DNA of 64,000 nucleotides. Origin: an uncultured Actinomycetota bacterium. Lineage in GTDB: Bacteria > Actinomycetota > Humimicrobiia > Humimicrobiales > Humimicrobiaceae. The number at the start of each line of letters is the position of its first letter. The stretch's first letter is position 1. The stretch covers positions 1,269 through 65,268 of the forward strand of contig CAZKVH010000005.1 of the NCBI GenBank assembly GCA_964556165.1, written 5' to 3'. Both the position numbers and the translations under genes were made by a program. Below, one piece after another: positions 4,218 to 57,667 of the stretch. The notes below the pieces were generated by a model. It was not told the DNA's origin. It saw nothing but the letters and a program-made list of their open reading frames with translations, and searched no databases.

Positions 4218-6350
4218 TTAATTATCGTTAATCTCTAACTTCGAGAAATCTGCTATCGTCATATAAAGGTCAACTGCCTTCTTTACAAGACCAATACGAT
4301 TGTTCCTTAATTTTTCGTCTTTATCCATAACCAGGACTTTATCAAAAAACAAATCCACAACCACTCCGAAATCATAAAGCTCATTAAGAACATCTTTATA
4401 TTTTTTATCTTCCGAAAGCTTTCCAATCAATCCCTCTTTATCACTTATTGACCTGTAGAGCTCCTTTTCATGCTCTTCTTTAAGTAAATCAGCATCTACC
4501 CTGTCAGAGATGCTTCCCTTTATTATATTTTTGCATCTTACCATCGGGAAATATAGCTTTTTTATATCCTTTTCTTTAATAAATTCTTCAATAGCACCGT
4601 ATCTTAAATTTATCTCAGGAATCGAACTGCATCCTGAACCCAGGACTGATTCTAAAATGTCCAGTCTCCTGTTCTCTTTTTCAAACATAAATCTTAATCT
4701 TGCTATTATAAAATCTCTTATGTCCTTAGCTACTCGCAATTTATCTTCATTGCTGAGCTCAGAATATGCGGGATATAGCTTAAGGTTATAATCAATCAGA
4801 CCATCAAGGTTAAAATCATATTCGCCTTTAGGCACTGAAAGAATAATACCGGAGGCTTTTCTTCTTAAAGCAAAGGGGTCTTCAGAGCCGGTGGGTATTT
4901 TACCTGCCAGAAATATGCCTGTTATGGTGTCAACTTTATCGGCAATAGATAGTATAAGCCCAACATCGTTTGAAGGCAATATGTCATCTGCGAATCTCGG
5001 AAGATAATGTTCGAAAACTGCGCTTGATACTTCAGCCTTTTCGCCTCTTTCCTCTGAATACTGGCGCCCTACAATACCCTGAAGAGAAGGAAATTCCACT
5101 ACCATATCCGTAACAAGGTCACACTTGCAGAGCATACTTGCCCTGGCAAGGTCCTCTACTAAATCAGTATTCTTAAACTCCTGTTTTTTCTTTAACAATC
5201 CTGACATAAAGTTTGTTATTTTCTTCAACCTTACGCTCTTATCATAAATACTGCCAAGACCTGAAAAGAAAATAACTCCTTTCAGCTTTTCGGTCCAGAA
5301 ATCAAAGTCATGTTTTTTATCCACTTCATAAAAATATGCCGCATCACTCAATCTCGCTCTAAGCACCCTCTCGTTTCCTTTTCTGATTTCGCCTGTATCC
5401 TTAATTCCATTCTGAATAATTATAAAATTGGTGCTTATATTTCCAGAAGAATCAAGAACTGCAAAATACTTCTGGTGATATTGTATTGATTCGATTAATA
5501 ATTCTTTTGGAATGTATAAAAACTCTTCCGGGAAGCTGCCGGCAATAACATTTGGTATTTCAACCATGTTTACGACATCATTTAAAAGGTCATTATCAAT
5601 AATAACCTTAAATTTACCCTTCCATATTTTTTCTTCAAGATTCTTTATCTGTTCAAGTATTAATCTTCTTCTATCACCTGCGACAGCCATTACCCTGCCC
5701 TTTTTGCTCAGGATTTCTAAATAATCGTTGCTATTCTTTATGGTTATTGGTTCCGGGCTAATCATGCGGTGTCCATAAGTAATATTAGAAGAAACCAGGT
5801 TTTCAATATTAAATTTTATTATTTCATTATCATAGAGGGCAAGAATCCACCTTATGGGACGGGCAAATTTTATACTGTAATCAGCCCATGTCATCTGCTT
5901 GCTAAACTTTAAAGAAAGAATAGTATCCCTGAGTATAAACGCGAGAAGCTCCTTCGTTTTTTTACCTTTCTCTAAAATTCTTTTACCGAGATAGAGGCCT
6001 TTACCCTGCACTTCTATTTTTTCAAGCTCGCTTACTTTTAAATTTAAACTCTTTGCAAAACCCCTTGCAGCACCTGTGGGGTTACCAGAACTGTCAAAAG
6101 CAATTCCTACCGGGGGACCTGTTATTATTTTTTCTTCCGAATCCTGAGTTTCAATTAAATCATCAACTATAGAAACGAGTCTCCTCGGAGAGCTATATAT
6201 ATTAATACTGCCGAATTTTAATCTGTTTTCGGTAAATTTACTTTCTAAAACCTCTTTCAGGCCCCTGACTCCCTCCTGAATACACGACGGGGGCATCTCT
6301 TCCGTACCGATTTCAAAAAGTAATTGTTTTCCCTTCACATTAATATTCAT
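4218..6350 (-). CDS. glyS: glycine--tRNA ligase beta subunit
   Basis: 710 aa, immediately downstream of glyQ on the same strand. Typical GlyS length and conserved blocks. Confidence 0.9.
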   Translation of the reverse strand: MNINVKGKQLLFEIGTEEMPPSCIQEGVRGLKEVLESKFTENRLKFGSINIYSSPRRLVSIVDDLIETQDSEEKIITGPPVGIAFDSSGNPTGAARGFAKSLNLKVSELEKIEVQGKGLYLGKRILEKGKKTKELLAFILRDTILSLKFSKQMTWADYSIKFARPIRWILALYDNEIIKFNIENLVSSNITYGHRMISPEPITIKNSNDYLEILSKKGRVMAVAGDRRRLILEQIKNLEEKIWKGKFKVIIDNDLLNDVVNMVEIPNVIAGSFPEEFLYIPKELLIESIQYHQKYFAVLDSSGNISTNFIIIQNGIKDTGEIRKGNERVLRARLSDAAYFYEVDKKHDFDFWTEKLKGVIFFSGLGSIYDKSVRLKKITNFMSGLLKKKQEFKNTDLVEDLARASMLCKCDLVTDMVVEFPSLQGIVGRQYSEERGEKAEVSSAVFEHYLPRFADDILPSNDVGLILSIADKVDTITGIFLAGKIPTGSEDPFALRRKASGIILSVPKGEYDFNLDGLIDYNLKLYPAYSELSNEDKLRVAKDIRDFIIARLRFMFEKENRRLDILESVLGSGCSSIPEINLRYGAIEEFIKEKDIKKLYFPMVRCKNIIKGSISDRVDADLLKEEHEKELYRSISDKEGLIGKLSEDKKYKDVLNELYDFGVVVDLFFDKVLVMDKDEKLRNNRIGLVKKAVDLYMTIADFSKLEINDN

Positions 6351-7330: not shown

Positions 7331-8113
7331 TTATATTCCTATTTTTTTTAGATATTTAAAGCTATCTACATTACATTCGGTATGATAAACTAAATAATCT
7401 TCTATCAACTTATATACTCTTTTTAAAGTAAACGGATTTATCTCCATATCCCTGAAATCTTCTATTTTCATTCTGGATAAATCATATAAAAACCTGTAAT
7501 CCGAGGCGCTTAAAACTTCGCTGCCTGCCAGTGAAGATGCGCAGGTATCACAGAGCACCCCGCCATATTTTATAGAAAAATAAATTTTATCCCTGTTGAA
7601 AGAATATAGTTTTTCAAGAGGCCTGTTGCATTTGCTGCAGCTCTCAAGTAGGGGAGCATATCCCAGGACACTTAAAAACTTAATTCCAAAAAAACACATG
7701 ATTTTTTTTAATAACGGTATATCCTCCATTCCTGCATTGTTTATCTCATTAAAACATATGTAAATCAGCTTAAAAATAGAGGGAGAAGACTCGCTGCCTG
7801 ATGCCTGGGTTTTTAAAATGATATTGCTTATTATTTCACTAAAGACGAATTTGGAAAAATCAGAAGGAATATTTTTAAAGCTTTTTATTATTTCTACCTG
7901 ATTTATAATGTCCAGGTTCCTGCCCCTGGTAAGCTCCAGCTCCACAAGATTAAAGAGTTCCAGCCTCCCGCCAAACCTGCTGCGTATCTTACGTGCGCCC
8001 TTTGCAACTGCGCTTATTATATCCCCTTCAAGGGAATACATCTTCAGTATTTTATCAGACTCGCCCAGTTTATAAGTCTTTAAAATAATAGCCTTTGCTT
8101 TATAAGATGGCAT
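7331..8113 (-). CDS. recO: DNA repair protein RecO
   Basis: 260 aa. N-terminal OB fold and C-terminal Cys zinc motif (CSKC..CDTC). Sits in the conserved era-recO-glyQS neighbourhood. Confidence 0.8.
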   Translation of the reverse strand: MPSYKAKAIILKTYKLGESDKILKMYSLEGDIISAVAKGARKIRSRFGGRLELFNLVELELTRGRNLDIINQVEIIKSFKNIPSDFSKFVFSEIISNIILKTQASGSESSPSIFKLIYICFNEINNAGMEDIPLLKKIMCFFGIKFLSVLGYAPLLESCSKCNRPLEKLYSFNRDKIYFSIKYGGVLCDTCASSLAGSEVLSASDYRFLYDLSRMKIEDFRDMEINPFTLKRVYKLIEDYLVYHTECNVDSFKYLKKIGI

Positions 8114-8936: not shown

Positions 8937-9839
8937 TCAATAGCCAAATCTATCAAGCATCATTTCATTCTTTGTCCAGTTTTTTTCAACCTTAACCCAG
9001 AGCTCCAGAAAGACTTTACTGTGCAAAAGAGCTTCAAGCTCCAGTCTTGCCTCTCTCCCAGCTTCCTTAAGCATACTGCCTGACTTGCCAATTATTATAG
9101 CTTTATGTGAAAGTTTTTCAGCGTAAATGTTACAACCTATTATTATTAGATTCTCACCTTTACTGCTGGTGGTTTCCTCAAATCTCTCGACACTTACGCT
9201 TACGCTATGAGGGAGCTCCTCAGATAATCTTTCAAATAATTTTTCCCTTACTATCTCCGATATTGTTCTTTCCATGGTCTGGTCAGTGGTTACATCCATA
9301 TCAAAGTATCTGGGACCTTCCGGTAGCTTCCCTATCAAAGAACCCAGAAACCTGTCAAGATTCTTACCTGTTTTTGCTGAAATTTCACCCAAATAGTCAA
9401 AAAAATCAAAATCTTTTATTTTTTCCTTCTCTCTTTTTATTACATCTTCCGAAACCATATCAATTTTGTTTAAAAGAAGAAACTTTGGTACAGGTCTGTC
9501 TTTAACATGGTCAATTACAAAAAAATCACCGCTTCCTATCCCTGCGGCTACGTCCACCATTACTACAATCAAATCCGAGTCATTAATCACGCTTATAACA
9601 CGATTATATAATCTTCTTCCCAGTAAATTCCTTGGCTTAAAAAACCCCGGGCAATCAACAAATATTACCTGTGAATTTCCTGTATTTAAAATACAATTAA
9701 TTTTATCTCTGGTAGTTTGTGCCCTGCTTGAAGTTATAACCACTTTCCTGTCCATTATTTTATTGATTAGCGTTGATTTCCCTACATTTGTCCTTCCAAT
9801 CAGACCAACAAACCCCGATTTAAAGTTATCCTTACTCAT
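8937..9839 (-). CDS. era: GTPase Era
   Basis: 300 aa. G1 motif GRTNVGKST, DCPG, NKID, and a C-terminal KH domain. Confidence 0.92.
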   Translation of the reverse strand: MSKDNFKSGFVGLIGRTNVGKSTLINKIMDRKVVITSSRAQTTRDKINCILNTGNSQVIFVDCPGFFKPRNLLGRRLYNRVISVINDSDLIVVMVDVAAGIGSGDFFVIDHVKDRPVPKFLLLNKIDMVSEDVIKREKEKIKDFDFFDYLGEISAKTGKNLDRFLGSLIGKLPEGPRYFDMDVTTDQTMERTISEIVREKLFERLSEELPHSVSVSVERFEETTSSKGENLIIIGCNIYAEKLSHKAIIIGKSGSMLKEAGREARLELEALLHSKVFLELWVKVEKNWTKNEMMLDRFGY

Positions 9840-10433: not shown

Positions 10434-11486
10434 TTAATATCCATTTCCAATAGCATCCAGCCACTGCTCCTCAAAAGAAGCCGGGCTCAGGCCCGTTGCA
10501 GTTTCAAGGGAAGTTAAGAGGTCTTTTTGATTGTTGTATTCTGAAAGAAATAAATTTAAGGCCTCAAAGCCAAATTCCATAGAAATGAAATTAACAAAAG
10601 ATATATATTCAGAAAATATAAAAGTTCCATCCTGACCCAGGTAACGCACTCCCTTGCTTTCCAGTTCCAGAATAGGTATAAAATTTCCTCCTGACACAAC
10701 TCCACAAATAGTTTCATTGCTTATGGAGTTCGGGTCGATAAAGCTACCGGATATGGACTTATCTGCCAGTGCTTCATTCAGCCATTCATTTTTTTTAGCT
10801 GCTTCAGGATATACCCAGAAATAATAGGCGTGACCTATCTCATGCAGAAGACCTATTCTGTAATTTGCCTCATCATCTACTATATCAGGCACCGGCTTGA
10901 ACCCCTCTGCTTTATATATATGTACTTCTCCATCTGATGCCTGCCCCGCGGATTTACTTCCATCAAAACCGGGTGGAGTCATGCCACCTGTTACAGTTTC
11001 AAACTCTTCGGTGGTATTACATAAAAAAATCTCTATTTTTTTATCCAGAACTTCTCCAAAAATCACCTCCAGGCCTTCCCATCCACTTTCGGCTATCTGT
11101 ATATAATCATTTAAAAAATCTTCATCAATCTCGTTAAAATAAAAAATGTAATGCTCGGCCTCAACTTTTCTCTGAAGCCCTTTCCTATCTGCCTGTGTTA
11201 TCTGGTACGATTCCGGGACTGAAAACTCCTGCTGTGTTTCGGTATCATCCCCGGACGCAGGATAAAAATCTCCTCCTGTATCATCTCTTTTATTTTCATC
11301 GTCTTCAGGTGTCCATCCTTCCGATGATATTGTTTTCGTAGATTCAGGCCTCCCAGACTGAAAACCTTCTAAAATTCCATTTATGTTTTCCATCAGGCTA
11401 CACGAACTCAGCTGAAATGAAAACAACAGCAAAATAAAAACTGAAACTATGAATAATATCTTTTTTTTATTTCTCATATCAAGCAC
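10434..11486 (-). CDS. secreted lipoprotein with HExxH zinc-metallopeptidase-like motif
   Basis: Signal peptide with lipobox (FQLSSC) and a HEIGH motif (LLHEIGHAYYF). No confident family assignment. Confidence 0.55.
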   Translation of the reverse strand: MLDMRNKKKILFIVSVFILLLFSFQLSSCSLMENINGILEGFQSGRPESTKTISSEGWTPEDDENKRDDTGGDFYPASGDDTETQQEFSVPESYQITQADRKGLQRKVEAEHYIFYFNEIDEDFLNDYIQIAESGWEGLEVIFGEVLDKKIEIFLCNTTEEFETVTGGMTPPGFDGSKSAGQASDGEVHIYKAEGFKPVPDIVDDEANYRIGLLHEIGHAYYFWVYPEAAKKNEWLNEALADKSISGSFIDPNSISNETICGVVSGGNFIPILELESKGVRYLGQDGTFIFSEYISFVNFISMEFGFEALNLFLSEYNNQKDLLTSLETATGLSPASFEEQWLDAIGNGY

Positions 11487-11689
11487 TCAAATAATTTTTT
11501 AAATAAATTATTTATTATATTAAACTGTATTTTCTAAATTTTGTAAATAATATTTTAAATATTGTATTAATATAATAATAAAATAAATATTATTAAAATA
11601 TCAAGAATATGGATTTATTTTGTATTGGCTATCTCTGTAGATGCCCTATATTGATTACATTATGATAAAATTATCGCTAGCTAAGATTG

Positions 11690-12163
11690 CTAGAGATTAA
11701 AATGTGCTCTTACATCAGATATAAGACTGTTCTGAATTCTTTCCATGTCCATCCTGTCTCTCTCATCGACATGGTCATAGTTATATATATGCAGCATTCC
11801 GTGGATTATAAGAAGTATTATTTCCAGACTGAGATTCCAGTCACCTTTCTGATATATTGAAACATTGGAATCAGCAACCTCAGGACATATATATATTTCT
11901 CCTATCGTTACAGCAAACGGCCCGGCTCCGGGAATCATATTTTCTTTATCGTCAATATATGAAAATGACAAAACATCAGTTTCTCTGTCTACTTTCCTGT
12001 ATTTTTTATTTAGCTCCTTTATTTTCTTACTGTCAGAAAAAATAATATTTAAATGGCTTCCGGGATCCTTATCAAATTTATTTGAAATATATCTGGAGAT
12101 CTTTTTTATCATGTCCATTTCTATATCTATTTTATCCTGGTCATTAATTACCTCTATCTTCAA
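11690..12163 (-). CDS. ybeY: rRNA maturation endoribonuclease YbeY
   Basis: 157 aa. HGMLHIYNYDH matches the YbeY H3xH5xH metal-binding motif. Confidence 0.9.
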   Translation of the reverse strand: MKIEVINDQDKIDIEMDMIKKISRYISNKFDKDPGSHLNIIFSDSKKIKELNKKYRKVDRETDVLSFSYIDDKENMIPGAGPFAVTIGEIYICPEVADSNVSIYQKGDWNLSLEIILLIIHGMLHIYNYDHVDERDRMDMERIQNSLISDVRAHFNL

Positions 12164-14361
12164 TTTGCCTCCACCTTTGTCTTAAGCTCTACCTTATCCC
12201 TTAAGTCATCCTCACCGTAAGAAATCCTTGAATGATATATCGATATAAGCCCATCAATCAGGGAATTCTTAACAGTATTAATCTCTTTAAGAGTAATACT
12301 GGTTTCATCAAGCTGGCCATCTTTTAATTTATCTTCAAAAATATCATTTACCATCTGCTCGATTTTTTTAGGAGTTACCTTTTCAATGGACCTCACTGCT
12401 GCTTCTGTCGAGTCTGAAAGCATAAGAATAGCTGCTTCTTTGCTCTGTGGCTTTTTTGCCTGATAACGGAAATGTTCCTTCATGCCAGCGGAGCTGCCAT
12501 TAGTTGCTAACGCCATATCCTTCTGCTTTTCATAAAAATAAGTTATTATTGAGTTCCCATGGTGCTGGGAAATAATATTTAAAACCTTCCTCGGAATCTT
12601 ATTCTTTGCGGCAAGCTCGAGACCATCTTTTACATGATTCGATATTATATGCCTGCTCATTGAAGGATTCAGACGGTCATGAACATTCTCAATGCTTGAT
12701 TGATTCTCATAAAAATATTCAGGTCTTTTCATTTTTCCAACATCATGGTAAAGAGCTGCTACTTTCACCAGCAAAGAATCAGCCCCTATGTCTTTTGCTG
12801 CATTTTCGGCAAGGTGAGCTACCAGAATACTATGATTATAAGTTCCCGGTGCTGACATAAGAAGTTTCTTGAGCAATGGATGGTCGGTATTTGAAAGCTC
12901 AAGTAACCCCATTGCGGTCGTGACATTAAAAGTGGACTCAATAAAAGGCAAAAGTCCTATAGCAATAACCGCACAGATTATCCCATTAACCAGCCCAAGC
13001 GCAGTATATAGTATGATTGTTTCCACTTCACCGCCAATAAGGCTGATTATTAAAAACAAGAATGCAAGAAAAAGTGAACTTAAAAAACCCGACCTCATTA
13101 CTGCAGAGCGCTGCGATACTTTTGACACGGTGTAGGAAGCAAAAATGCCTCCCAGCATATATGCAATCGCAAGACTGAAATCAAAATCAGTCGCAATCCC
13201 TGCAAATATACCCAGAGAAATTGTCATCATCATTCCTATACGGCTATTAAAAAGAATGGTCGAGATTAAAGACGCTGCAATCACAGGAAATAGATAATTC
13301 CAGAAATTCAGATGTATGGATGAAAGAATAGTTAACGCCTTTATTAAAGCCGTAAAAGTTACCATAAGAAAAGCAATTATGACCAGTTTCTTTGTGTTGC
13401 TGAATATATCAGGGTTAAATTTGAATATATAGAACCCAAATAGAGCAAGCGCTATCAAAGATGTAAAGAATATATATAAAAGTCTTTTCCAGTTAAGCCC
13501 CGTCTGCAGCAACCCCAGTTTATTTAATATAGTGATATCCGTTTCATTAACAATTTCTCCTTCAAAAACAATAGTCTGGCCTTCAAGTACGGAAACCATA
13601 TGAGGAGGAGTACTTGACCTCGCTTCCTGTCTTGCTTTTTCTGTGCCTTCAGGGTCAAAAACAGCCGTAGGCTCAATATTATTTTCAAGAACGCTTGTAA
13701 CTATGGGAATGTGTTCCTGTTTGATTTCACCATCCGCTTCAGCAAGTTCTATGGCTTCATTTTTAGCAATATCCACTCCCGTAGGTCTTATTTCCTTTTT
13801 CATTACCTCCCTTGCTATATCCTGGGTCTTATTTGCCAGTAAATCAAGCTCATCGGCTGAAAGATTAAGAGCAAGGGAAATAACTGAGCTCGTATATTTG
13901 CCGCTAAGAAGATTATTCATATAGTCAACCTTCTCTTCAAATGTCTTATCTTCCTTACCCTGAACTATGCCTGCCAGAAGATAAAAATATTTTATCTGAT
14001 AAAGAGCACCGTCCTCACCATTTAAAACATTGATATCATAAACATATACATCCTCTACTTCTGCTTCATTATTATTTCTATCTTCCTCTGTTTTTTCAGT
14101 GTCCTCAAACTCTATACTTCTGGTTGCCTTAATAGTCCTTGGGCTGGGTTTGGCAAGTTCTATTCCTATGTCCGGAGAATAATTATAAGAGAGAACAGCT
14201 ACAACTATAGCCAGGGTGAGAACAGATATATACATAACCTGGGCGATTCTGCTCCTGAATGAAAAATATTTTACGGCAAAATTTCTAAATTTCTCCAGCC
14301 TGCTCTCTTCACCATTATGAAATTCCTTATTTTTATTATTTCTCTTTATCATCTTAATCAC
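12160..14361 (-). CDS. 7TM-receptor with intracellular HD hydrolase (PgpH/YqfF family, c-di-AMP phosphodiesterase-like)
   Basis: 733 aa. Extracellular N-domain, 7 TM helices and a C-terminal HD domain (HDVGK). Conserved phoH-yqfF-ybeY arrangement. Confidence 0.85.
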   Translation of the reverse strand: MIKMIKRNNKNKEFHNGEESRLEKFRNFAVKYFSFRSRIAQVMYISVLTLAIVVAVLSYNYSPDIGIELAKPSPRTIKATRSIEFEDTEKTEEDRNNNEAEVEDVYVYDINVLNGEDGALYQIKYFYLLAGIVQGKEDKTFEEKVDYMNNLLSGKYTSSVISLALNLSADELDLLANKTQDIAREVMKKEIRPTGVDIAKNEAIELAEADGEIKQEHIPIVTSVLENNIEPTAVFDPEGTEKARQEARSSTPPHMVSVLEGQTIVFEGEIVNETDITILNKLGLLQTGLNWKRLLYIFFTSLIALALFGFYIFKFNPDIFSNTKKLVIIAFLMVTFTALIKALTILSSIHLNFWNYLFPVIAASLISTILFNSRIGMMMTISLGIFAGIATDFDFSLAIAYMLGGIFASYTVSKVSQRSAVMRSGFLSSLFLAFLFLIISLIGGEVETIILYTALGLVNGIICAVIAIGLLPFIESTFNVTTAMGLLELSNTDHPLLKKLLMSAPGTYNHSILVAHLAENAAKDIGADSLLVKVAALYHDVGKMKRPEYFYENQSSIENVHDRLNPSMSRHIISNHVKDGLELAAKNKIPRKVLNIISQHHGNSIITYFYEKQKDMALATNGSSAGMKEHFRYQAKKPQSKEAAILMLSDSTEAAVRSIEKVTPKKIEQMVNDIFEDKLKDGQLDETSITLKEINTVKNSLIDGLISIYHSRISYGEDDLRDKVELKTKVEAN

Positions 14362-51670: not shown

Positions 51671-51884
51671 TAAAGATAAAAAAATAATAACTTTTTTTGT
51701 AATACTGTCCTATTTGATTATTTTAAATAATAATTCTTCAAACGTATTCCAATTATTATCTAAATTAACAAGGTCATGCTATTTGCTTATGAACTATATA
51801 TTATTTATATTATGATCAATAAATTGTATTGTTTTCGGGTGTTAAATATAAGTAAGCTACATAACAAAACGCCAGATTAATATT

Positions 51885-51925
51885 TAAAAAAAGAAAGACC
51901 AAGCTAGCAATTTGGTCTTCTTCTA
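51885..51925. terminator. bidirectional intrinsic terminator (AGACCAA-loop-TTGGTCT) with T-runs on both strands
   Basis: Hairpin at 51894-51919 flanked by AAAAAAAG upstream and TCTTCT..TTTTT downstream. Sits ~125 nt past the stop of the 52046..53260 gene and ~215 nt past the 51323..51670 gene. Confidence 0.55.
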
Positions 51926-52045
51926 ATTATTTTTATGAAATAATTTATAAAAACTATGCACCAATACCCACTATTACTCCTCTCATTTCAAGTTAAAAAA
52001 CAATATTAATTCATTATAACAAAATAATCAACAATTAAAAGCAAT

Positions 52046-53260
52046 TCAAATAACAGTAGACCATTGAGCTCTCACAGTCCCATAAAAATCATTTTCGTTA
52101 TAATAAAAGGTAGTATAGATAATAGATTCCTCAGTTTTTTGAAATTTCATTTCCCTGCCGAAAGATGCGTGTTCTTCTATTGAAGATGACCTGGTTAAAA
52201 AAGGTTCCTTTCTAAATTTATAACCGTTCTCAACTATTAAACTTAAATTGATTGAATCAAGCAATCCATAAGTACTCTGAATCCTAAGTTCATAATAATC
52301 TTGGTGCTTGTTTTCAACTTTATAAAGCAAAGGATATCCCCACGCAAATTCATATTCTATTATATCTTCTGATTTAAGGGATTTAACTGGCAATTTATCA
52401 AAAGATGGAAACTCGAACAATAAAGGTATTTTTTTATCTTCTCGACCTATTCTTTCTTTAACATTAAAAGGAATATTAACTCTTTTATCATTAATACTCT
52501 TGATAAGAGTAGCGAAAAAGTGTTTGGTAGGCTTTTCAGAAGGAGTATTCCTAATCATCTTATTAAACTCTGGTAAGGATTTATTACCAACATTTAAGTA
52601 GATTAAATGATCTATGCCTTTGAATTCATCGGCATCCAATATGGTGACTTTACTATGAACTTCCGCAATAGCTGTACCGTTATTATATAAATATAAAGTT
52701 TTATCAAGTGAATTTTGCTTGTATGGATGTATTGAGCGTCTTTCAGTTTCTTCTATTAATTTTTTTCTGAAATCAATTAAATATTCTGCTAATATCTCTC
52801 TTAGATAGCCTGATTTAGATTTAAGAACCTTATCCCTCTCAAATTCCATCAGCTTAAGTCTACGTATTACTATTAGACCAATATCCCGAGGTTCTGGATT
52901 TATTCCTTTTTCATACATACCTGCACAGGTCTTTTTGGAAAAACTATACTTCCTTCCCATAGCAAAAGAAGATTCACTTATTACCATTGCTGGTGGTAAA
53001 ATATATTTCTTATTCTTAGCGTCAAGAGCATTATATCTTTTTGTAAAAATAGCAAAAATACCAGCACTTTCGTGAATGTTTTTTTGTATCTGTTCATCTA
53101 AAAAATCAACATTTTTATGTTCCCCTACAATATATGGGTCAAAACCAAATTCAGGTTTTTTTATAAAATCGATTATTTTCTTAATTAGAGATTTATCCTC
53201 TTCATCATAACTAAAAGCAACAAAAATTTTAATCTTTTCTTTTTTATCTTGAGTAATCAT
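52046..53260 (-). CDS. TIR-like (flavodoxin-fold) N-terminal domain protein with uncharacterised ~280-aa C-terminal domain
   Basis: N-terminus KIFVAFSYDEEDKSLIKKIIDFIKK..FDPYIVGEH..ESAGIFAIFTKRY follows the TIR/DUF1863 beta-A-alpha-A-beta-B pattern. The C-terminal domain has no motif I recognise. Isolated transcription unit with AT-rich flanks. Confidence 0.35.
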   Translation of the reverse strand: MITQDKKEKIKIFVAFSYDEEDKSLIKKIIDFIKKPEFGFDPYIVGEHKNVDFLDEQIQKNIHESAGIFAIFTKRYNALDAKNKKYILPPAMVISESSFAMGRKYSFSKKTCAGMYEKGINPEPRDIGLIVIRRLKLMEFERDKVLKSKSGYLREILAEYLIDFRKKLIEETERRSIHPYKQNSLDKTLYLYNNGTAIAEVHSKVTILDADEFKGIDHLIYLNVGNKSLPEFNKMIRNTPSEKPTKHFFATLIKSINDKRVNIPFNVKERIGREDKKIPLLFEFPSFDKLPVKSLKSEDIIEYEFAWGYPLLYKVENKHQDYYELRIQSTYGLLDSINLSLIVENGYKFRKEPFLTRSSSIEEHASFGREMKFQKTEESIIYTTFYYNENDFYGTVRAQWSTVI

Positions 53261-53541
53261 TAAAATTGCAAAGTTTATTGTATAAACAAATATTAATAAA
53301 CCATATAAGATAGAAATATAAAAAATTTTTTAATATATTATCTTAAAAAAAAATAAAAGTCAAAATTTTAAAATTTCAATATTCTTTGACGATATTTTCT
53401 TTGTTGTTGGTTATATCTTACAAGAAATAAATGTAAGACAAAAACTATTAAAACAGATACTAAGGTGAATAAAATAAAAAAAATACAATCGCCACTTTTT
53501 TCAAAGCAAAAGAAGAAATTGCTTAAAATTCTTTAGTCCCT

Positions 53542-54210
53542 TTAAGATTTACCAAACCTTTTAATCATCTCAAGGTCTACTCCCCTATAGCTATCGATTA
53601 CCAAATCAGCAATCCCTAAATCTTTAGCAGCATATGTATTTGTTATCGCTATGCAATTCATACCGGCACTTTTTGCAGCCGTTACACCTGCGATAGTATC
53701 TTCAAAAACAACGCATTCAGAGGGTTTTACATTAAAAATACTTGCACCCAGCAGGTAAATTTCAGGGTCGGGCTTTACTTTTTTTATATTATCCCTTGAA
53801 AGTTTGAGGTCAAAGTAGGGCGCAAGGTTCAATTTCTCAAATATTATATCAACCTCCCTGACCCTGCTGTTTGTGGCAAGTCCTATTTTAAAATTTCCTT
53901 TTATCATTTCGAGAAGGTCGTATATATAAGGTACAGGAACAACCTCTTTCCTTAAATTCCTGACATAGCGCTCCTTTAGCGTATTTTTTATACTCTGTTT
54001 ATACTCAATACCCCTGCTTTCCAGTATTATCTTTATCGATTCTTTCCATATAAGCCCATAAAATAATTTTTCTTCTGAGGAGGCTAAGATAATATTCCTT
54101 TTTGCCATAAAATCCCTTGTAACTTTCCAGAGTATCTTTTCACTATCTGCAATTGTCCCGTCCATATCAAAAAAAACAGCTTTAATCATTGACGACCTTT
54201 CTAAATACAT
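53542..54210 (-). CDS. HAD-superfamily hydrolase (beta-phosphoglucomutase-like subfamily IA)
   Basis: Motif I FDMDGT, motif II TNS, and C-terminal FEDTIAG. Confidence 0.8.
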   Translation of the reverse strand: MYLERSSMIKAVFFDMDGTIADSEKILWKVTRDFMAKRNIILASSEEKLFYGLIWKESIKIILESRGIEYKQSIKNTLKERYVRNLRKEVVPVPYIYDLLEMIKGNFKIGLATNSRVREVDIIFEKLNLAPYFDLKLSRDNIKKVKPDPEIYLLGASIFNVKPSECVVFEDTIAGVTAAKSAGMNCIAITNTYAAKDLGIADLVIDSYRGVDLEMIKRFGKS

Positions 54211-54666
54211 AACTAAATCGAATCAAATTATACTTAAAATTTGGGATTTTTAAATAACATTTTGTAATGTCATCAGTTGATTAACACTTTGGATAATTTT
54301 TCATACCTCTGCTTAATGCACTTTTCTAAAGAATCTTTTGTCCTCGAGTTTCACACAGATTATGTTTTACACCCCAAATAATCTATTTATATATTGAGGA
54401 CATTATTTTTATACATTATTAATTTTGCCCTATAATCTTCAAGCTCTTCTTTAGAAAAGCCCTCAAGCGTAAAGTCTATTTATTAAACTTATGGAACACC
54501 AATTAATAAAAGAAAACTGACTTTAGCTAAAAGAAAGGTTAATTTATAATTCCGTTAGTTCTGTATCAAAACAGGAATTAGTGGTTTCTACTCACTTCTG
54601 TTTTTCCATCTTAATTGCACTCTGAGTCATCAATTTCTGATACACTGTAATATAATACTACTTATA

Positions 54667-55122
54667 TTACTCATAACTTTTAAGTATAGATTCTATAATA
54701 TCTGCACGTGTTATTATTCCTACCAGTGTATTTTCTTTATCCAGTACCGGCACCCTGTTAATCTTATTATTAAGCATAACATTTACAACTTTTGACAATG
54801 GTTCATCTTCTTTAACAGTCCTTACCGTCCTGGTCATTACATCTTCAACTTTTGTTTTTAAGTACTCTTCTGTACTTTTCGTATAGGTTTCGTATTTATT
54901 CATAAAACTGTAACTAAAAGAAATAGGCAGGGGCAGACTTGATTCCTTTAAAATGATATCTCCTTCTGTAATGATACCAACAATAACTTTTTTTTCATCA
55001 ACAACAGGTACACCTGAAATCTTTTTCTTTATAAGCAGCTTAGCTAGATCACCAACAGTAGAATCCTTATCTATGGTAATTACTTTTTTTGTCATAATAT
55101 CTTTTGCAAAAAGCTCTTTCAT
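54667..55122 (-). CDS. CBS domain pair protein
   Basis: 151 aa with two CBS motifs (..IMTKKVITI.., ..VMTRTVRTV..). Downstream of the antiporter gene. Confidence 0.8.
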   Translation of the reverse strand: MKELFAKDIMTKKVITIDKDSTVGDLAKLLIKKKISGVPVVDEKKVIVGIITEGDIILKESSLPLPISFSYSFMNKYETYTKSTEEYLKTKVEDVMTRTVRTVKEDEPLSKVVNVMLNNKINRVPVLDKENTLVGIITRADIIESILKSYE

Positions 55123-55157
55123 TTTATCCTTAATTCACCTATTCATTGTATGATTGT

Positions 55158-56405
55158 TTAATCTTTTTTATAAGCCTCACCAGACTTAACCAGAGCGAGC
55201 TTAATCAATGGCGGTGAAATCAGCTCGTTTATTATCACTGATGTTATTATACCATTTATAAATACATTGGCGATATTGGCATCAATTAAAGGAATATGCT
55301 CCTTTATCAGCAATGCTAACCCCATGGTTACACCCGCTTTGGGAAAAAGCCCGAATGTTAAATATTTCTTAAAGATTGCCGGTGACTTAGAAACCGAAGT
55401 TCCAATAATAACCCCCACAAATTTTCCTAAAAATCTACTGATAACTAAGACTAAAGCTATGATTCCAGAAATTTTTAATATAGTATAATCGAAATGCGCG
55501 CCGGCTAAAGTAAAAAACATAGCAAAGATTACACCTTCAATGTCGTGTACTGCCTCAAACATTTTTTCACTCTCAACCATTCTGTTTACTACAATAAAAC
55601 CCATAACCATATTTGCCAGAATATTCGAAAACCCCAGTGCATCAGAAAGCCCTGTGCATAAAAAAACTGTGCCCAGGACTATAACCATCATCTGCGGCAT
55701 CTTTTTTACAAATTTACCTACAAAAGTCAGCCCAAAACCTAAAAGCGTTCCTAAAGCTATTGCCCCAAATATATCAATAATGGGGGTCAGAAACATTTTA
55801 TATAATGATATATTGCTTAATCCTATTATTAGTGAGTCAGCGATATTCGCGCCAATTGAATAAGCGATAACTGCTATAGCATCATCCAGCACAATTATTG
55901 CCAAAAGAGCAACTGTAAATGGACCAGTTGCTCTATATTCATGAATAACCGCTATAGTTGCAGCAGGAGCAGTGGCACAGGATATAGCTCCAATAATTAT
56001 AGCAATAGGCAGGCACGAAATAATAGTAGGTGTACTTACTCCATCAAGCCTTATCAAAAAAGGACAGAGAAAAGCTATTATTGCAGTTACGAATACCCAC
56101 GCGCCCATTGCTTGATAAAATGTAATTATAGAAATACTCTTACCAAATTGCTTTAGCCTTTTAAGATATAATCCTCCTCCCACCAGGTATCCAATTATTC
56201 CAAGACTAATCTCTGTAATTATGTTTAATTCCCCTTCAATTAATTCCCTGGGGATAATACCTGACAAGCTTAAAATTATACCTACTATGATAAATCCGCT
56301 TATAGTTGGGAAGTTAACCTTTCGAGCTACCAGGCCTCCAAAGAAACCAATTACCAAAAATATCCCAATGGTAAGAACGACATTAAATTCAAAATTAAAT
56401 TCCAT
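55158..56405 (-). CDS. monovalent cation:proton antiporter (CPA2/Kef-type membrane domain)
   Basis: 415 aa, about 12 TM helices, Na+/H+ exchanger family pattern. Paired with the CBS protein. Confidence 0.75.
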   Translation of the reverse strand: MEFNFEFNVVLTIGIFLVIGFFGGLVARKVNFPTISGFIIVGIILSLSGIIPRELIEGELNIITEISLGIIGYLVGGGLYLKRLKQFGKSISIITFYQAMGAWVFVTAIIAFLCPFLIRLDGVSTPTIISCLPIAIIIGAISCATAPAATIAVIHEYRATGPFTVALLAIIVLDDAIAVIAYSIGANIADSLIIGLSNISLYKMFLTPIIDIFGAIALGTLLGFGLTFVGKFVKKMPQMMVIVLGTVFLCTGLSDALGFSNILANMVMGFIVVNRMVESEKMFEAVHDIEGVIFAMFFTLAGAHFDYTILKISGIIALVLVISRFLGKFVGVIIGTSVSKSPAIFKKYLTFGLFPKAGVTMGLALLIKEHIPLIDANIANVFINGIITSVIINELISPPLIKLALVKSGEAYKKD

Positions 56406-56487
56406 ATTATTTTATAATAAATATGTTAAATGGCCCTTTTCGTAACTTAGTATTATACCACAACATATAGTCCAATCTTAAAATTTC

Positions 56488-56670
56488 TTATTTTTTTCTT
56501 AATTCTGCCACTTTTTCTGTAATAAACTCATATACATTACCGGAGTACTTCTCTATATGATATCTTATAATCGTTTTTGTTTCCCCTTTTCGAAGGACTA
56601 TAAGAACTCCGGTTACAATCCCCGGCTGCATAACAATCATGATATAGCCAGATATATCTGAATTAATCAT
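56488..56670 (-). CDS. small hypothetical protein (60 aa)
   Basis: ORF only. One hydrophobic stretch and no recognisable domain. Confidence 0.25.
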   Translation of the reverse strand: MINSDISGYIMIVMQPGIVTGVLIVLRKGETKTIIRYHIEKYSGNVYEFITEKVAELRKK

Positions 56671-56776
56671 AAATGAGATTTTTGTTATATCTTATTATTT
56701 AAGTTTCCAATCATTTTTTATATAATTTCATCCGGTGCCTAATTGACATGAAAGTTTTAAACAGGAAAGGTTTGAT

Positions 56777-57667
56777 ATGAAAACTGATATGGAGTGTATT
56801 CCATGTATAATAAACCAGTGTATCACTACATTGAATCTGACTGGCTGCAGGGAAAAATTAAAAAGAGAAGCACTAAAAAAGCTGCTAAACATACTATCGG
56901 AAGTAGATTATGATGCTTCTCCTGCATATAATTCTGATTTTGCCTATTCGGTGGCAAGGGAATTCACCGGAGTTAAGGACCCTTATCATAATTTAAAGAA
57001 GAAATATAACCGTATTGCACTGGAATTTTATCCTTCGCTAAAACAAATGGTCGAGTCGTCCGCAGACAGGTTATATACCGCTGCAAAAATATCCGTCGGG
57101 GGAAATATAATTGACTTTGGAATTAATATAAATAAGGGGAAAACACTGGATTTTAATAAAATTTTAAATGACATAAAAAATATACCCTTTGCAGCCGATG
57201 ACTATAAGGAATTCAGGAAATCACTTGATGAATCCGAAAATATTTTATATTTAAGCGATAATGCTGGTGAAATTGTTTTTGACAGAGTTCTAATAGAAGA
57301 GCTCGTCAGGATGAAAAAGAAAGTTATCCTGTCTGTTAAATCAGGTCCCGTTACAAATGATGCCACCATAGAAGATGCAAAGGAAGCCGGCCTTCTAGAT
57401 ATTGTCAGGATCATTGGAACAGGAAATGACAGAATCGGTGTAAATTTTGAAAGCTCATCGGTTGAATTTCTAAGAGAGTTTAAAAAAGCAGAGCTTATAA
57501 TTGCCAAAGGGCAGGGGAATTTAGAAAGCCTTGATAATGTTGAAGCAAATACCTTTTTTATATTGAGAGCTAAATGTGGAAAAATTGCCAGAGCCCTGGA
57601 GGTAAATCACATGGATATTGCTCTTGAAAAAAGAAAACCCAAATGGGGAAGTAGAAAGATTAAGTAA
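56777..57667 (+). CDS. DUF89 (ARMT1-like damage-control phosphatase) family protein
   Basis: N-terminal CIPC..NQC motif, conserved DNAGE metal site (YLSDNAGEIVFD), 296 aa. Confidence 0.7.
   Translation: MKTDMECIPCIINQCITTLNLTGCREKLKREALKKLLNILSEVDYDASPAYNSDFAYSVAREFTGVKDPYHNLKKKYNRIALEFYPSLKQMVESSADRLYTAAKISVGGNIIDFGININKGKTLDFNKILNDIKNIPFAADDYKEFRKSLDESENILYLSDNAGEIVFDRVLIEELVRMKKKVILSVKSGPVTNDATIEDAKEAGLLDIVRIIGTGNDRIGVNFESSSVEFLREFKKAELIIAKGQGNLESLDNVEANTFFILRAKCGKIARALEVNHMDIALEKRKPKWGSRKIK

Follow-up and report, generated by a model that had tools for sequence, protein, structure and literature searches.

Does the gene at 52-53 kb of this DNA from an uncultured Actinomycetota bacterium, which a sequence-only reading had described as a stand-alone TIR-like protein with an unrecognized C-terminal module, encode a single-gene defence system? 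NAD-cleaving domains of the TIR type serve immunity in bacteria, plants and animals alike; what varies is the attached sensor, which decides which invader is recognized. We investigated the gene, its relatives and its surroundings in the window, by which we mean the whole stretch of 64,000 nucleotides that was analysed. The features discussed below are collected in Table 1.

The N-terminal sequence of the 404-aa product was the one quoted in the sequence-only reading, and the same protein, identical, was found on six contigs from several metagenome samples. Homologues were recovered at 50-71% identity, and the target is therefore a real, conserved gene. An exhaustive profile search of 1.84 billion representatives returned about 70 relatives, most of which were matched over their full length, and a family alignment of 54 sequences with 18-60% identity was used below. 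Used alone, the target protein had no match in Pfam, PADLOC, NCBIfam, PHROGs or PDB sequences; the family was absent from PHROGs and IMG/VR, and tblastn detected no match in sequenced plasmids and phages. A locus search of genome, metagenome and viral contigs gave no relatives with a single protein or a small alignment (A1) as query, and a two-sequence alignment of the Gimesia-type clade gave one further locus only. The family is rare and unannotated. In P0003, a close relative of the target, the gene is frameshifted, which indicates that a gene of the target type is dispensable.

Table 1. Features of the target gene and its surroundings (positions in the window)
Feature	Position	Strand	Description
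Tad/Flp pilus operon	~44.4-51.2 kb		Neighbour of the target
Phd/YefM-type antitoxin-like gene	51323-51670	+	115 aa; PF02604, 31.4 bits vs cutoff of 29.8 bits
Hairpin, likely intrinsic terminator	51895-51919	.	Between the converging target and Phd-like genes; U-tract on the target's strand
Cassette	52004-53396	-	DNA homologous to relatives' loci (blastn): gene, 136 nt upstream and ~40 nt downstream
Complete ORF (target)	52046-53260	-	404 aa and stop codon; TIR-like domain, helical linker, beta-sandwich domain
All-beta sandwich domain	52049-52723	-	Residues 180-404 (225 aa); new sequence family
Long linker helix (model)	52739-52810	-	Residues 151-174, between the domains
TIR-like (TIR/NDT superfamily) flavodoxin-fold domain	52820-53233	-	Residues 10-147
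E96 codon, GAA	52973-52975	-	Putative catalytic Glu in helix alphaC; sole invariant alignment column
Promoter-like TTGACT-17-TAATAT	53335-53363	-	Sigma-70-like; ~75 nt 5' of the start codon; consensus scan
Decayed relic of a Phd-like gene fragment	53413-53461	+	Direct repeat of 51479-51528 in the intact gene

AlphaFold run from a four-sequence alignment gave an unusable model (pLDDT 37); the AlphaFold2 model from the 54-sequence alignment had a pLDDT of 91.4 and a pTM of 0.81. This model comprises three parts, namely, a TIR/NDT-type domain, a long helix and a beta-sandwich. The first part (residues 10-147) was modelled as a five-stranded parallel beta/alpha flavodoxin-like fold, with a beta-hairpin (residues 76-88) inserted before alphaC, and superposes on solved TIR domains, in agreement with the earlier assignment of the N terminus to a TIR/flavodoxin pattern. 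It carries the motifs F13-x-x-x-S17-Y18-x-x-x-D22, F72-T73-K-R75, PPxMVxSE96xxFAxG, GMYE117xG and F140-x-R142. The conserved glutamate in alphaC that the sequence-only reading had proposed to look for was found: position 96 is E in 54/54 aligned sequences, and no other column is invariant. In an HMM alignment, E96 was aligned with E642 of SARM1 (the aligned range agreeing with the PDB-search match), the catalytic Glu of that protein, W638 being the aromatic residue four positions earlier. The position at -4 to E96 is aromatic in 42 of the 54 sequences (Y in 22, W in 14 and F in 6), and in the target and the three relatives closest to it a methionine, Met92, takes this place. F13 is kept in 49 of the 54 members, and E117, F13, F140 and R142 are near-invariant across the family. 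Together, the alignment and the model favour a divergent TIR-like domain with E96 as its putative catalytic residue. The model also has the fold of nucleoside deoxyribosyltransferases (NDTs); such a fold lacking the glutamate was what the sequence-only reading had set against its own proposal, but here the glutamate is invariant.

The target protein itself lies below the TIR membership threshold, with no TIR match in Pfam even at an E value of ≤10. Across the family, the commonest Pfam match was TIR_2 (PF13676; 28/54 members at E ≤1), followed by the CAP12/Pycsar TIR (12/54), and P0043 alone passed the TIR_2 gathering threshold through its own domain (31.2 versus 28 bits; model positions 4-119 of 122). 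The best TIR_2 match in the family (6.7e-32) probably stems from the extra canonical TIR of P0055, a 574-aa outlier with a TIR_2 domain fused at its C terminus (residues 425-558); PADLOC TIR models gave this extra domain high scores, and a precomputed TIR_2 match is assigned to it. The fusion ties the family scaffold to TIR biology. Comparison with a canonical TIR by hhalign gave an E value of 4e-5. DUF4062 (PF13271) was matched at E ≤1 by five of the 54 members, the best at 17.2 bits versus a threshold of 24.7 bits, and was not matched by the target. Judged by such matches, the TIR-like core sits in poorly charted space between canonical TIRs, DUF4062 NADases and deoxyribosyltransferases.

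The linker is the least conserved segment of the protein: its mean top-residue frequency is 0.28, and the N- and C-domains reach 0.44 and 0.36, respectively. Conservation of each domain on its own was seen in about 48 of the 54 members, and the N-domain was the more conserved one in 91% of 1081 pairs. Conserved residues of the C-domain are H218, Y303, W307, P310, E344, P353 and W400. Sequence searches gave no match of this domain to known families, and at that level the sequence-only reading was right to recognize no match for the C-terminal ~280 aa. A fold search with the model recovered the N-terminal beta-saddle domains of M1 aminopeptidases, LTA4H, ribophorin I/OST1, BDI_1141 (PDB 3kd4), lpg2210 (4g2a) and ITIH1 as sharing its fold, at 8 to 12% identity, where a sequence relationship is undetectable and the similarity is one of fold only; the BFVD viral fold library gave single-domain matches only. 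Thus, the sequence searches and the predicted structure describe the C-domain as a previously undescribed sequence family on a known beta-saddle fold. The beta-saddle relatives belong to peptidases or extracytoplasmic complexes, unlike the TIR-fused C-domain. We know of no case in which the beta-saddle domain of those proteins is fused to a TIR and, to our knowledge, a sensor fold of this type has not been reported in prokaryotic immune proteins.

The AT-rich flanks noted in the sequence-only reading were confirmed, the GC content at 51-52 kb being 25% versus 35-43% elsewhere in the window. The hairpin downstream of the gene can form on either strand (-11.6 and -10.4 kcal/mol; z of -2.1 and -2.6), and on the strand of the target UCUUUUUUU comes after it. 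As a pattern match, this makes the earlier claim of a terminator of the gene's own, possibly a bidirectional one, reasonable. Upstream, the promoter-like site falls in a 136-nt stretch (53261-53396) that is conserved with the locus of a relative (L013; blastn). Sigma-70-like sites numbered 24 versus 21 expected by chance, and this site is not statistically distinguishable in AT-rich DNA. An Rfam search of the flanks found nothing.

The toxin-antitoxin and pilus neighbours named in the sequence-only reading are present in the form of the Phd/YefM-like gene and the Tad/Flp operon. The Phd-like gene and the target converge, and the listing of small ORFs showed no toxin ORF adjoining it. In the other contexts, no homologue of the target has a Phd-like gene next to it, and we rejected this gene as a system partner because of this absence and of the convergent orientation. 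Copies of two Phd-like repeat families, D1 and D2 (91% and 85% identity), bracket the target gene, and the relic translates with stops (VISYKK*M*DKNY* versus VIISYKKYMEDKNLL). Homology to relatives' loci, as detected by blastn, covers 52004-53250 at 71% for L004 and 52061-53396 at 68% for L013. The target abuts a synteny break relative to genomes that are ~88% identical: with the HAD flank as the anchor, the relatives' synteny ends exactly at the HAD stop codon and is followed by unrelated Feo, ferritin and ABC genes. A clean presence/absence polymorphism of a single gene was rejected in view of a large rearrangement with a variable junction.

A recombinase or transposase was found in six of the nine contexts of the family. 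A tyrosine recombinase is present at L001, L004 and L013 (188 aa) and at L020, a serine recombinase together with HipA at L016/L017, and an MmeI-type restriction-modification system with an IS element at L012. In close relatives, the gene travels together with genes for a recombinase, ParA and a primase-helicase, and a DrmC/MkoC-like PLD nuclease and a weakly viperin-like radical SAM protein are also among the family's neighbours. The sequence-only reading had named consistent location in housekeeping operons as evidence against itself; two of the contexts (Gimesia L011 and P0076) resemble housekeeping regions. No partner gene is shared by the nine independent contexts, and the description as a stand-alone single gene is upheld to that extent. 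The argument from a defence island proved weak; the genes adjoining the target in the window are not defence genes. The proposed PADLOC check returned no model matched by any member through the family's own domains. The structural side of the sequence-only reading was confirmed, and the target is a plausible candidate for a defence role.

Our main reading, to which we assign a probability of about one half, is that the gene is a self-contained single-protein conflict system, most likely of the anti-phage abortive-infection type, in which a divergent TIR-like N-glycosidase with E96 would be joined by a helix to a beta-sandwich sensor. It is the presence of the family on mobile DNA in related bacteria that makes a new single-gene anti-phage suicide switch the most likely role. 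Counting against this reading are the lack of matches in PADLOC, PHROGs, sequenced phages, plasmids and IMG/VR, the non-defence neighbours in the window, the two housekeeping-like contexts, Met92 in the target's subclade, the target's missing Pfam TIR match, the large rearrangement at the synteny break and the frameshift in P0003. The protein would be made constitutively from its own promoter and held inactive. The beta-sandwich would then bind a trigger, for which a phage protein or peptide is the most plausible candidate, because the fold has protein- and peptide-binding relatives and the domain diverges faster. By analogy with SARM1 and Swarozyc (see below), binding would make the TIR-like domains oligomerise or shift position by way of the linker helix, and the assembled domains, if they follow TIR biochemistry, would hydrolyse NAD+, resulting in its depletion and in a growth stop of the infected cell. 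More tentatively, the gene may be the first example of a single-gene abortive-infection family not described before, in which a beta-saddle sensor of a phage protein or peptide would switch on a TIR-like NADase of a separate lineage between TIR_2, DUF4062 and NDT, and which is carried as a cassette beside a small tyrosine recombinase in uncultured Actinomycetota.

An alternative is that the protein is an NDT/Rcl/MilB-type nucleoside or nucleotide N-glycosidase or transferase, acting in salvage or in a nucleotide-depleting defence, with the beta-sandwich as a regulatory or substrate-binding module. However, PF05014 (NDT) was matched at E ≤1 by 6/54 members, at best with 19.4 versus 28.8 bits, and not by the target; TIR-family matches are about 5× as frequent (28 + 12 versus 6 members), and the sole match above threshold is to TIR_2. 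Moreover, the N-domain profile retrieved TIR/SEFIR chains only, and no NDT chains, from the PDB sequences. Beyond strand A, the family has the motif F-x-[SA]-x-S-[FYW]-x-x-x-D, as in TIRs, and T73-[RK]74-R75 follows strand C; these stand in place of the Gly-rich loop after strand 1 and the sugar-binding Asp after strand 3 that are typical of NDTs, neither of which is found in the family. The weak sequence matches thus favour a TIR over a deoxyribosyltransferase, and a salvage role is further opposed by the sporadic, mobile-element-linked distribution, so that we consider an NDT-type enzyme unlikely.

Also unlikely, in our estimate, is a non-immune function, be it as a maintenance or addiction toxin of mobile elements, perhaps restrained by the Phd-like antitoxin, or as a non-enzymatic TIR-type adaptor. 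A Phd/YefM-like gene does lie beside the target, HipA lies near the family gene at L016, close relatives travel with mobile-element genes, and the target clade is without the aromatic residue at -4, all of which would suit such a function; but the Phd-like gene is not co-transcribed with the target and is absent from all the other contexts, the invariant Glu and the near-invariant E117, F13, F140 and R142 point to an enzyme, and the second domain, large and faster-evolving, resembles a sensor, for which a simple toxin would have no need. Sensing and signal generation are functions of many bacterial TIRs, and the beta-sandwich might instead sense infection so that the TIR-like domain, as in Thoeris ThsB or type IV Thoeris, makes a messenger of the cADPR-isomer type for an effector encoded elsewhere in the genome. 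ThsB (8wcf) is indeed among the structural and sequence neighbours, and the sensor-plus-TIR layout fits ThsB-like logic. Nevertheless, no ThsA, caspase-like, SLOG, Macro or other effector gene adjoins the gene in the nine contexts, no PADLOC ThsB model matches the family's own domains, and a mobile cassette with an unlinked effector would fail after transfer; we regard this reading, too, as unlikely.

If active, the self-contained TIR-like system would contribute both a sensor class and a TIR lineage that are new, would extend the principle of a TIR-like core plus auxiliary domain, as in Swarozyc and Evangelion, beyond DUF4062, and would provide a candidate for defence in an uncultured, low-GC lineage of actinobacteria whose defence biology, as far as we know, is undescribed. 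If inactive, the gene would be one more orphan accessory gene.

Among known systems, canonical TIR effectors (TIR_2; CAP12/Pycsar; TIR-STING, TIR-SAVED and SARM1-type) differ from the target in that it has no Pfam TIR match, one of the 54 members passing the threshold, the beta-hairpin is inserted before its alphaC, and its putative sensor is not a nucleotide-binding STING, SAVED, CARF or NLR module. SPARTA TIR-APAZ proteins resemble it in size (~400-450 aa) and in combining an N-terminal TIR with a large C-terminal module, and one member matched the PADLOC model Aga_TIR-PNTD1-PNTD2 at 5.8e-21. We rejected this assignment, since the PADLOC matches came only from the extra TIR of P0055 (model positions ~5-121), the fold matches of the C-domain are not to APAZ or Argonaute, and no pAgo gene adjoins the target or its homologues in any context. 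The family was not placed in Thoeris either, as no effector gene recurs in the nine contexts.

A closer likeness is seen to Swarozyc (KpSwz), a single-gene DUF4062 TIR-like NADase defence (Osinski et al., bioRxiv 10.64898/2026.05.01.722283), in which E97 is catalytic, a helical stalk follows, the auxiliary domain (AUX) is an HTH/winged fold that binds the phage portal, and the output is NAD+ depletion with abortive infection, as we propose for the target. Both are encoded by a single gene with a divergent N-terminal TIR-like domain between TIR and NDT and a comparable Glu (E97 versus E96), and in both a helical stalk follows that domain and leads to a C-terminal auxiliary domain, which in KpSwz is needed for sensing. 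Compared by description, the helical HTH/winged AUX of KpSwz differs from the 225-aa all-beta sandwich of the target, and the target family, unlike Swarozyc, falls below the DUF4062 threshold. Similarly, Evangelion (Eva01) is a single-gene family with a DUF4062 core and AUX that is found on plasmids, with a conserved F11, a catalytic E87, a DUF4062-specific Q/W/E motif (W162) and a loss of NAD+ when phage infects (Ibarra-Chavez et al., bioRxiv 10.64898/2026.06.25.731849). By the positions reported in the preprints, F11 and E87 are comparable to F13 and E96 of the target; in both families, the effector core is conserved, the C-terminal region has diversified and mobile elements serve as carriers. 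The AUX of Eva01 is short, whereas the target family is longer, its C-domain has a distinct fold that is conserved family-wide, and the search of sequenced plasmids gave no member of it. Swarozyc and Evangelion are the closest functional analogues of the target family.

The target has relatives at 50 to 71% identity and is thus a genuine conserved gene. The identical protein was found on six contigs (from three JGI and three Logan samples), and its context was constant throughout. The closest named relatives of the host's GuaA protein share 76 to 83% identity and all come from MAGs labeled Actinomycetota bacterium, which places the host among uncultured Actinomycetota. Searched alone against Pfam, PADLOC, NCBIfam, and PDB chains, the target gave no match even at E ≤ 10. 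The sequence-only reading had described this ORF, its AT-rich flanks, a bidirectional terminator, and an unmatched C-terminal part of ~280 aa, and it did so correctly: the ORF was exact, GC falls to 25% at 51 to 52 kb, and the hairpin forms on both strands, with a U-tract following it on the strand of the target. A TTGACT-17-TAATAT motif lies ~75 nt 5′ of the start codon, such sites occurring at chance frequency in this DNA. GC content is 25 to 33% across positions ~44000 to 57000 of the window versus 35 to 43% in the remainder, and this low-GC stretch spans the Tad/Flp pilus operon, the Phd-like gene, the target, and the HAD and CBS genes. No toxin ORF adjoins the Phd/YefM-like gene, and the interval separating it from the target holds only ORFs of <40 aa; this gene is an orphan antitoxin or small regulator.

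A word-indexed search of 5.8 billion clusters returned just four close proteins, and 1.84 billion representatives, searched exhaustively with a HMMER profile, yielded 70 proteins at E ≤ 1e-3, including 38 at ≤ 1e-10, mostly of 370 to 440 aa and aligned end to end. The family is rare. Pattern scans of ~186,000 species-representative genomes yielded one further family locus only, and no relatives were found in sequenced phages, sequenced plasmids, PHROGs, or IMG/VR. AlphaFold gave a pLDDT of 37 with a four-sequence alignment and a pLDDT of 91.4 (pTM 0.81) with 54 sequences. In the latter model, a five-stranded β/α domain (residues 10 to 147), with a β-hairpin (76 to 88) inserted ahead of helix αC (91 to 102), is followed by a 24-residue helix (151 to 174) and an all-β sandwich (180 to 404). 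Domain HMMs for residues 8 to 150 and 178 to 404, made from the 20 closest members, each recognized ~48 of the 54 full-length members in the alignment; the two modules are thus conserved together as one architecture and were not joined by chance. Over 1081 member pairs, mean identity was 29.6% for the TIR-like domain versus 22.8% for the β-sandwich, the former being higher in 91% of pairs, and the linker helix was the least conserved part. This is the pattern that a conserved effector with a diversifying sensor would leave. Three members of ~374 aa (P0051, P0063, and P0072) retain the TIR-like domain (domain HMM E values of 1e-24 to 1e-26) with an unrecognizable C-domain, and P0061 and P0073 have a weak C-domain match only; these proteins may form a sister lineage in which the sensor is another one or has diverged very far.

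ITIH1, the N-terminal part of which is the VIT ("vault protein inter-alpha-trypsin") domain, was among the best Foldseek fold matches of the β-sandwich. The vault protein TEP1 contains a DUF4062 TIR-like NADase, as described in the Swarozyc paper (bioRxiv 10.64898/2026.05.01.722283). That TIR-like and VIT-like folds occur together in both cases may be a coincidence.

Fold scores do not distinguish TIR domains from nucleoside 2-deoxyribosyltransferases (NDTs), since one superfamily holds both. Among the 54 members, Pfam matches at E ≤ 1 were to TIR_2 (28), CAP12/Pycsar-TIR (12), Nuc_deoxyrib_tr (6), and DUF4062 (5), nearly all of them below threshold; the two-domain member P0043 clears the gathering threshold of TIR_2, aligning with model positions 4 to 119 of 122. 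The N-domain profile gave 19 weak PDB matches, of which 14 were TIR or SEFIR chains (bacterial SEFIR, SNC1, Cat1, PycTIR, SARM1, ThsB, and AbTir) and none was an NDT. When hhalign compared this profile with the extra domain of P0055, which is a genuine TIR_2 domain, the match spanned strands A to C with 69% probability (E = 4e-5). E96 is the sole invariant column of the 54-sequence alignment. In the HMM alignment it falls on SARM1 E642 (PPAMVISE versus DWVHKE); the aligned range is consistent with the PDB search. The residue at −4 from this Glu is Y, W, or F in 42 of 54 members, comparable to SARM1 W638; in the target and the three members nearest to it, this residue is Met, which is possibly attenuating. 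F13, S17, D22, F72-T73, E117, F140, and R142 are also near invariant, and the strand-A motif F-x-S-x-S-F-x-x-x-D resembles TIR, unlike NDT. The sequence evidence thus favors TIR over NDT, and with it the TIR reading proposed from sequence alone, for which the named refuter was an NDT fold lacking the catalytic Glu. We consider the N-domain to be a divergent TIR-like domain with its putative catalytic Glu position intact, belonging by threshold to no current Pfam TIR family.

An all-member PADLOC scan gave matches to TIR-APAZ (5.8e-21), PDC-S66, SAVED-TIR, and ThsB, every one of which traced to residues 425 to 558 of the 574-aa outlier P0055. There, an additional canonical TIR domain (TIR_2) is fused after the β-sandwich as a third module. 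No PADLOC model matched the family's own domains, and a SPARTA/TIR-APAZ identity was rejected, since the matches stem only from this extra TIR. The fusion does link the TIR-like and β-sandwich scaffold to TIR biology. Upstream of P0055, at a distance of 1.2 kb, is a gene for a 494-aa integrase.

Nine independent contexts were recovered, and the target-family gene is a stand-alone unit, since no gene is common to all of them. A recombinase or transposase lies within a few kilobases in six of the nine. In three close relatives (L001, L004, and L013), the TIR gene is followed downstream by a 188-aa tyrosine recombinase, which is absent from the 64-kb window. In this clade, the recombinase proteins are 82 to 90% identical versus 50 to 63% for the TIR proteins. 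Pieces of ~110 nt from the recombinase upstream region are repeated, its 3′ end recurs as partial copies in L013, and a small ORF flanks the TIR gene on one side in L001 and on the other in L013. These shifts of recombinase-flank pieces and of the small ORF from locus to locus suggest shuffling or turnover of cassettes beside a conserved recombinase. In L004, two ORFs of 302 aa and 104 aa jointly make up the full length of the member P0003 (71% identical to the target); the split reflects either a frameshifted pseudogene or misassembly.

In the window, DNA homology to the relatives' loci covers the gene plus 136 nt upstream. The Phd-like relic beyond it is a ~50-nt direct repeat of a segment within the intact Phd-like gene (91% and 85% identity), so that the copies bracket the target; this repeat is probably the scar of an insertion or recombination. 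Three contigs of a closely related organism, retrieved with the HAD flank as the anchor, are collinear with the window from 60234 to 53541 at 80 to 88% nucleotide identity (87% for the HAD protein), and their homology ends at the base adjoining the HAD stop codon. This places the target at one margin of a region that varies between strains. Past the junction, Feo, ferritin, and ABC-transporter genes replace the TIR gene, the Phd-like gene, and the Tad operon, a large rearrangement and no clean single-gene insertion. No second boundary of this variable region was located in the window.

Features of the target locus and of loci carrying relatives
Sequence	Feature	Position	Strand	Remarks
Window	Target ORF	52046-53260	minus	404 codons; ORF listing
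Window	Hairpin between target and Phd/YefM-like gene	51895-51919	both	-11.6 and -10.4 kcal/mol
Window	Phd/YefM-like gene	51323-51670	plus	Convergent with target; 115 aa, C-terminal extension
Window	Segment repeated in relic	51479-51528
Window	Stop-ridden Phd-like relic	53413-53461		Intergenic, by HAD gene, 17 nt past end of cassette homology
Window	Homology to relatives' loci	52004-53396
Window	First Tad operon gene	49787-51172		461 aa; long Lys/Glu/Asn-rich N-terminal half, then weak ParA/CpaE-like ATPase domain
Window	Context			Orphan Phd-like gene, Tad pilus operon, HAD hydrolase
L001	Context			188-aa recombinase, RadC, PLD nuclease weakly like DrmC/MkoC
L001	188-aa tyrosine recombinase	5149-5715		Catalytic domain only; PHROG integrase match 8e-40 (likewise L004, L013)
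L001	Upstream-region piece	3533-3641
L001	Small ORF	3627-3875
L004	Context			DUF2958, same recombinase
L004	P0003	846-2058
L004	188-aa recombinase	2456-3064
L004	Upstream-region piece	2407-2517
L013	Context (Candidatus Humimicrobiaceae MAG)			Primase-helicase, ParA, same recombinase 300 bp downstream, DDE transposase
L013	188-aa recombinase	11133-11699
L013	Upstream-region piece	11031-11147
L013	Recombinase 3′-end copies	12652-12741, 13171-13293
L013	Small ORF	9195-9527
L011	Context (Gimesia algae)			PutA, sensor kinases
L012	Context			MmeI-type RM system, rSAM protein with weak viperin match, IS1595, ResIII
P0076	Context			Sulfatase, ThuA, PQQ genes
L016/L017	Context			Large serine recombinase, HipA
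L020	Context			494-aa tyrosine integrase
L020	P0055	5820-7544		Family member with extra TIR_2
L020	66-aa TIR_2 fragment	7617-7817	opposite to P0055	Just downstream of P0055
L022 (relative lacking target)	Post-junction genes	10166 onward		PadR/FeoA regulator, FeoB, ferritin, second Big_9/PKD protein copy, isochorismatase, MacB/HlyD transporters

This analysis establishes only the anatomy of the protein, its invariant Glu, the difference in conservation between the domains, and how the gene behaves in genomes. The best explanation, to which we give a probability of about one half, would be a TIR-like effector with a phage-sensing β-sandwich; by analogy with Swarozyc and Evangelion, the sandwich would bind a phage-derived protein or peptide, and we infer trigger binding, oligomerization, substrate, and phenotype. 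Among the alternatives, each of them unlikely and all close in weight, an NDT-like nucleotide or nucleoside glycosidase ranks highest; the PDB matches and strand-A motif argue against it. A non-immune toxin or adaptor is slightly less probable, the diversifying second domain arguing against a simple toxin. Marginally lower again is a signal-generating TIR, the effector of which would have to be unlinked.

Swarozyc is a single-gene system with a DUF4062 TIR-like NADase (catalytic E97) and a helical stalk, in which an AUX domain binds the phage portal, with NAD+ depletion and abortive infection (bioRxiv 10.64898/2026.05.01.722283). Evangelion, also a single gene, joins a DUF4062 core, in which F11 and E87 are found, to a diversified AUX region needed for defense (bioRxiv 10.64898/2026.06.25.731849). 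On paper, the target family has the same plan as both; however, it falls below the PF13271 threshold and hence is no member, and its sensor is all-β, whereas that of the Swarozyc protein KpSwz is HTH/winged. Membership in TIR_2, NDT, ThsB, and TIR-APAZ each failed by its defining tests. Thus, the known part is the class of single-gene architectures joining a TIR-like effector to a sensor, now familiar, and the new part is a separate sequence family for each of the two domains. To our knowledge, the fold of the putative β-sandwich sensor has not been tied to immunity before. The family escapes every annotation library and is a concrete, testable candidate.
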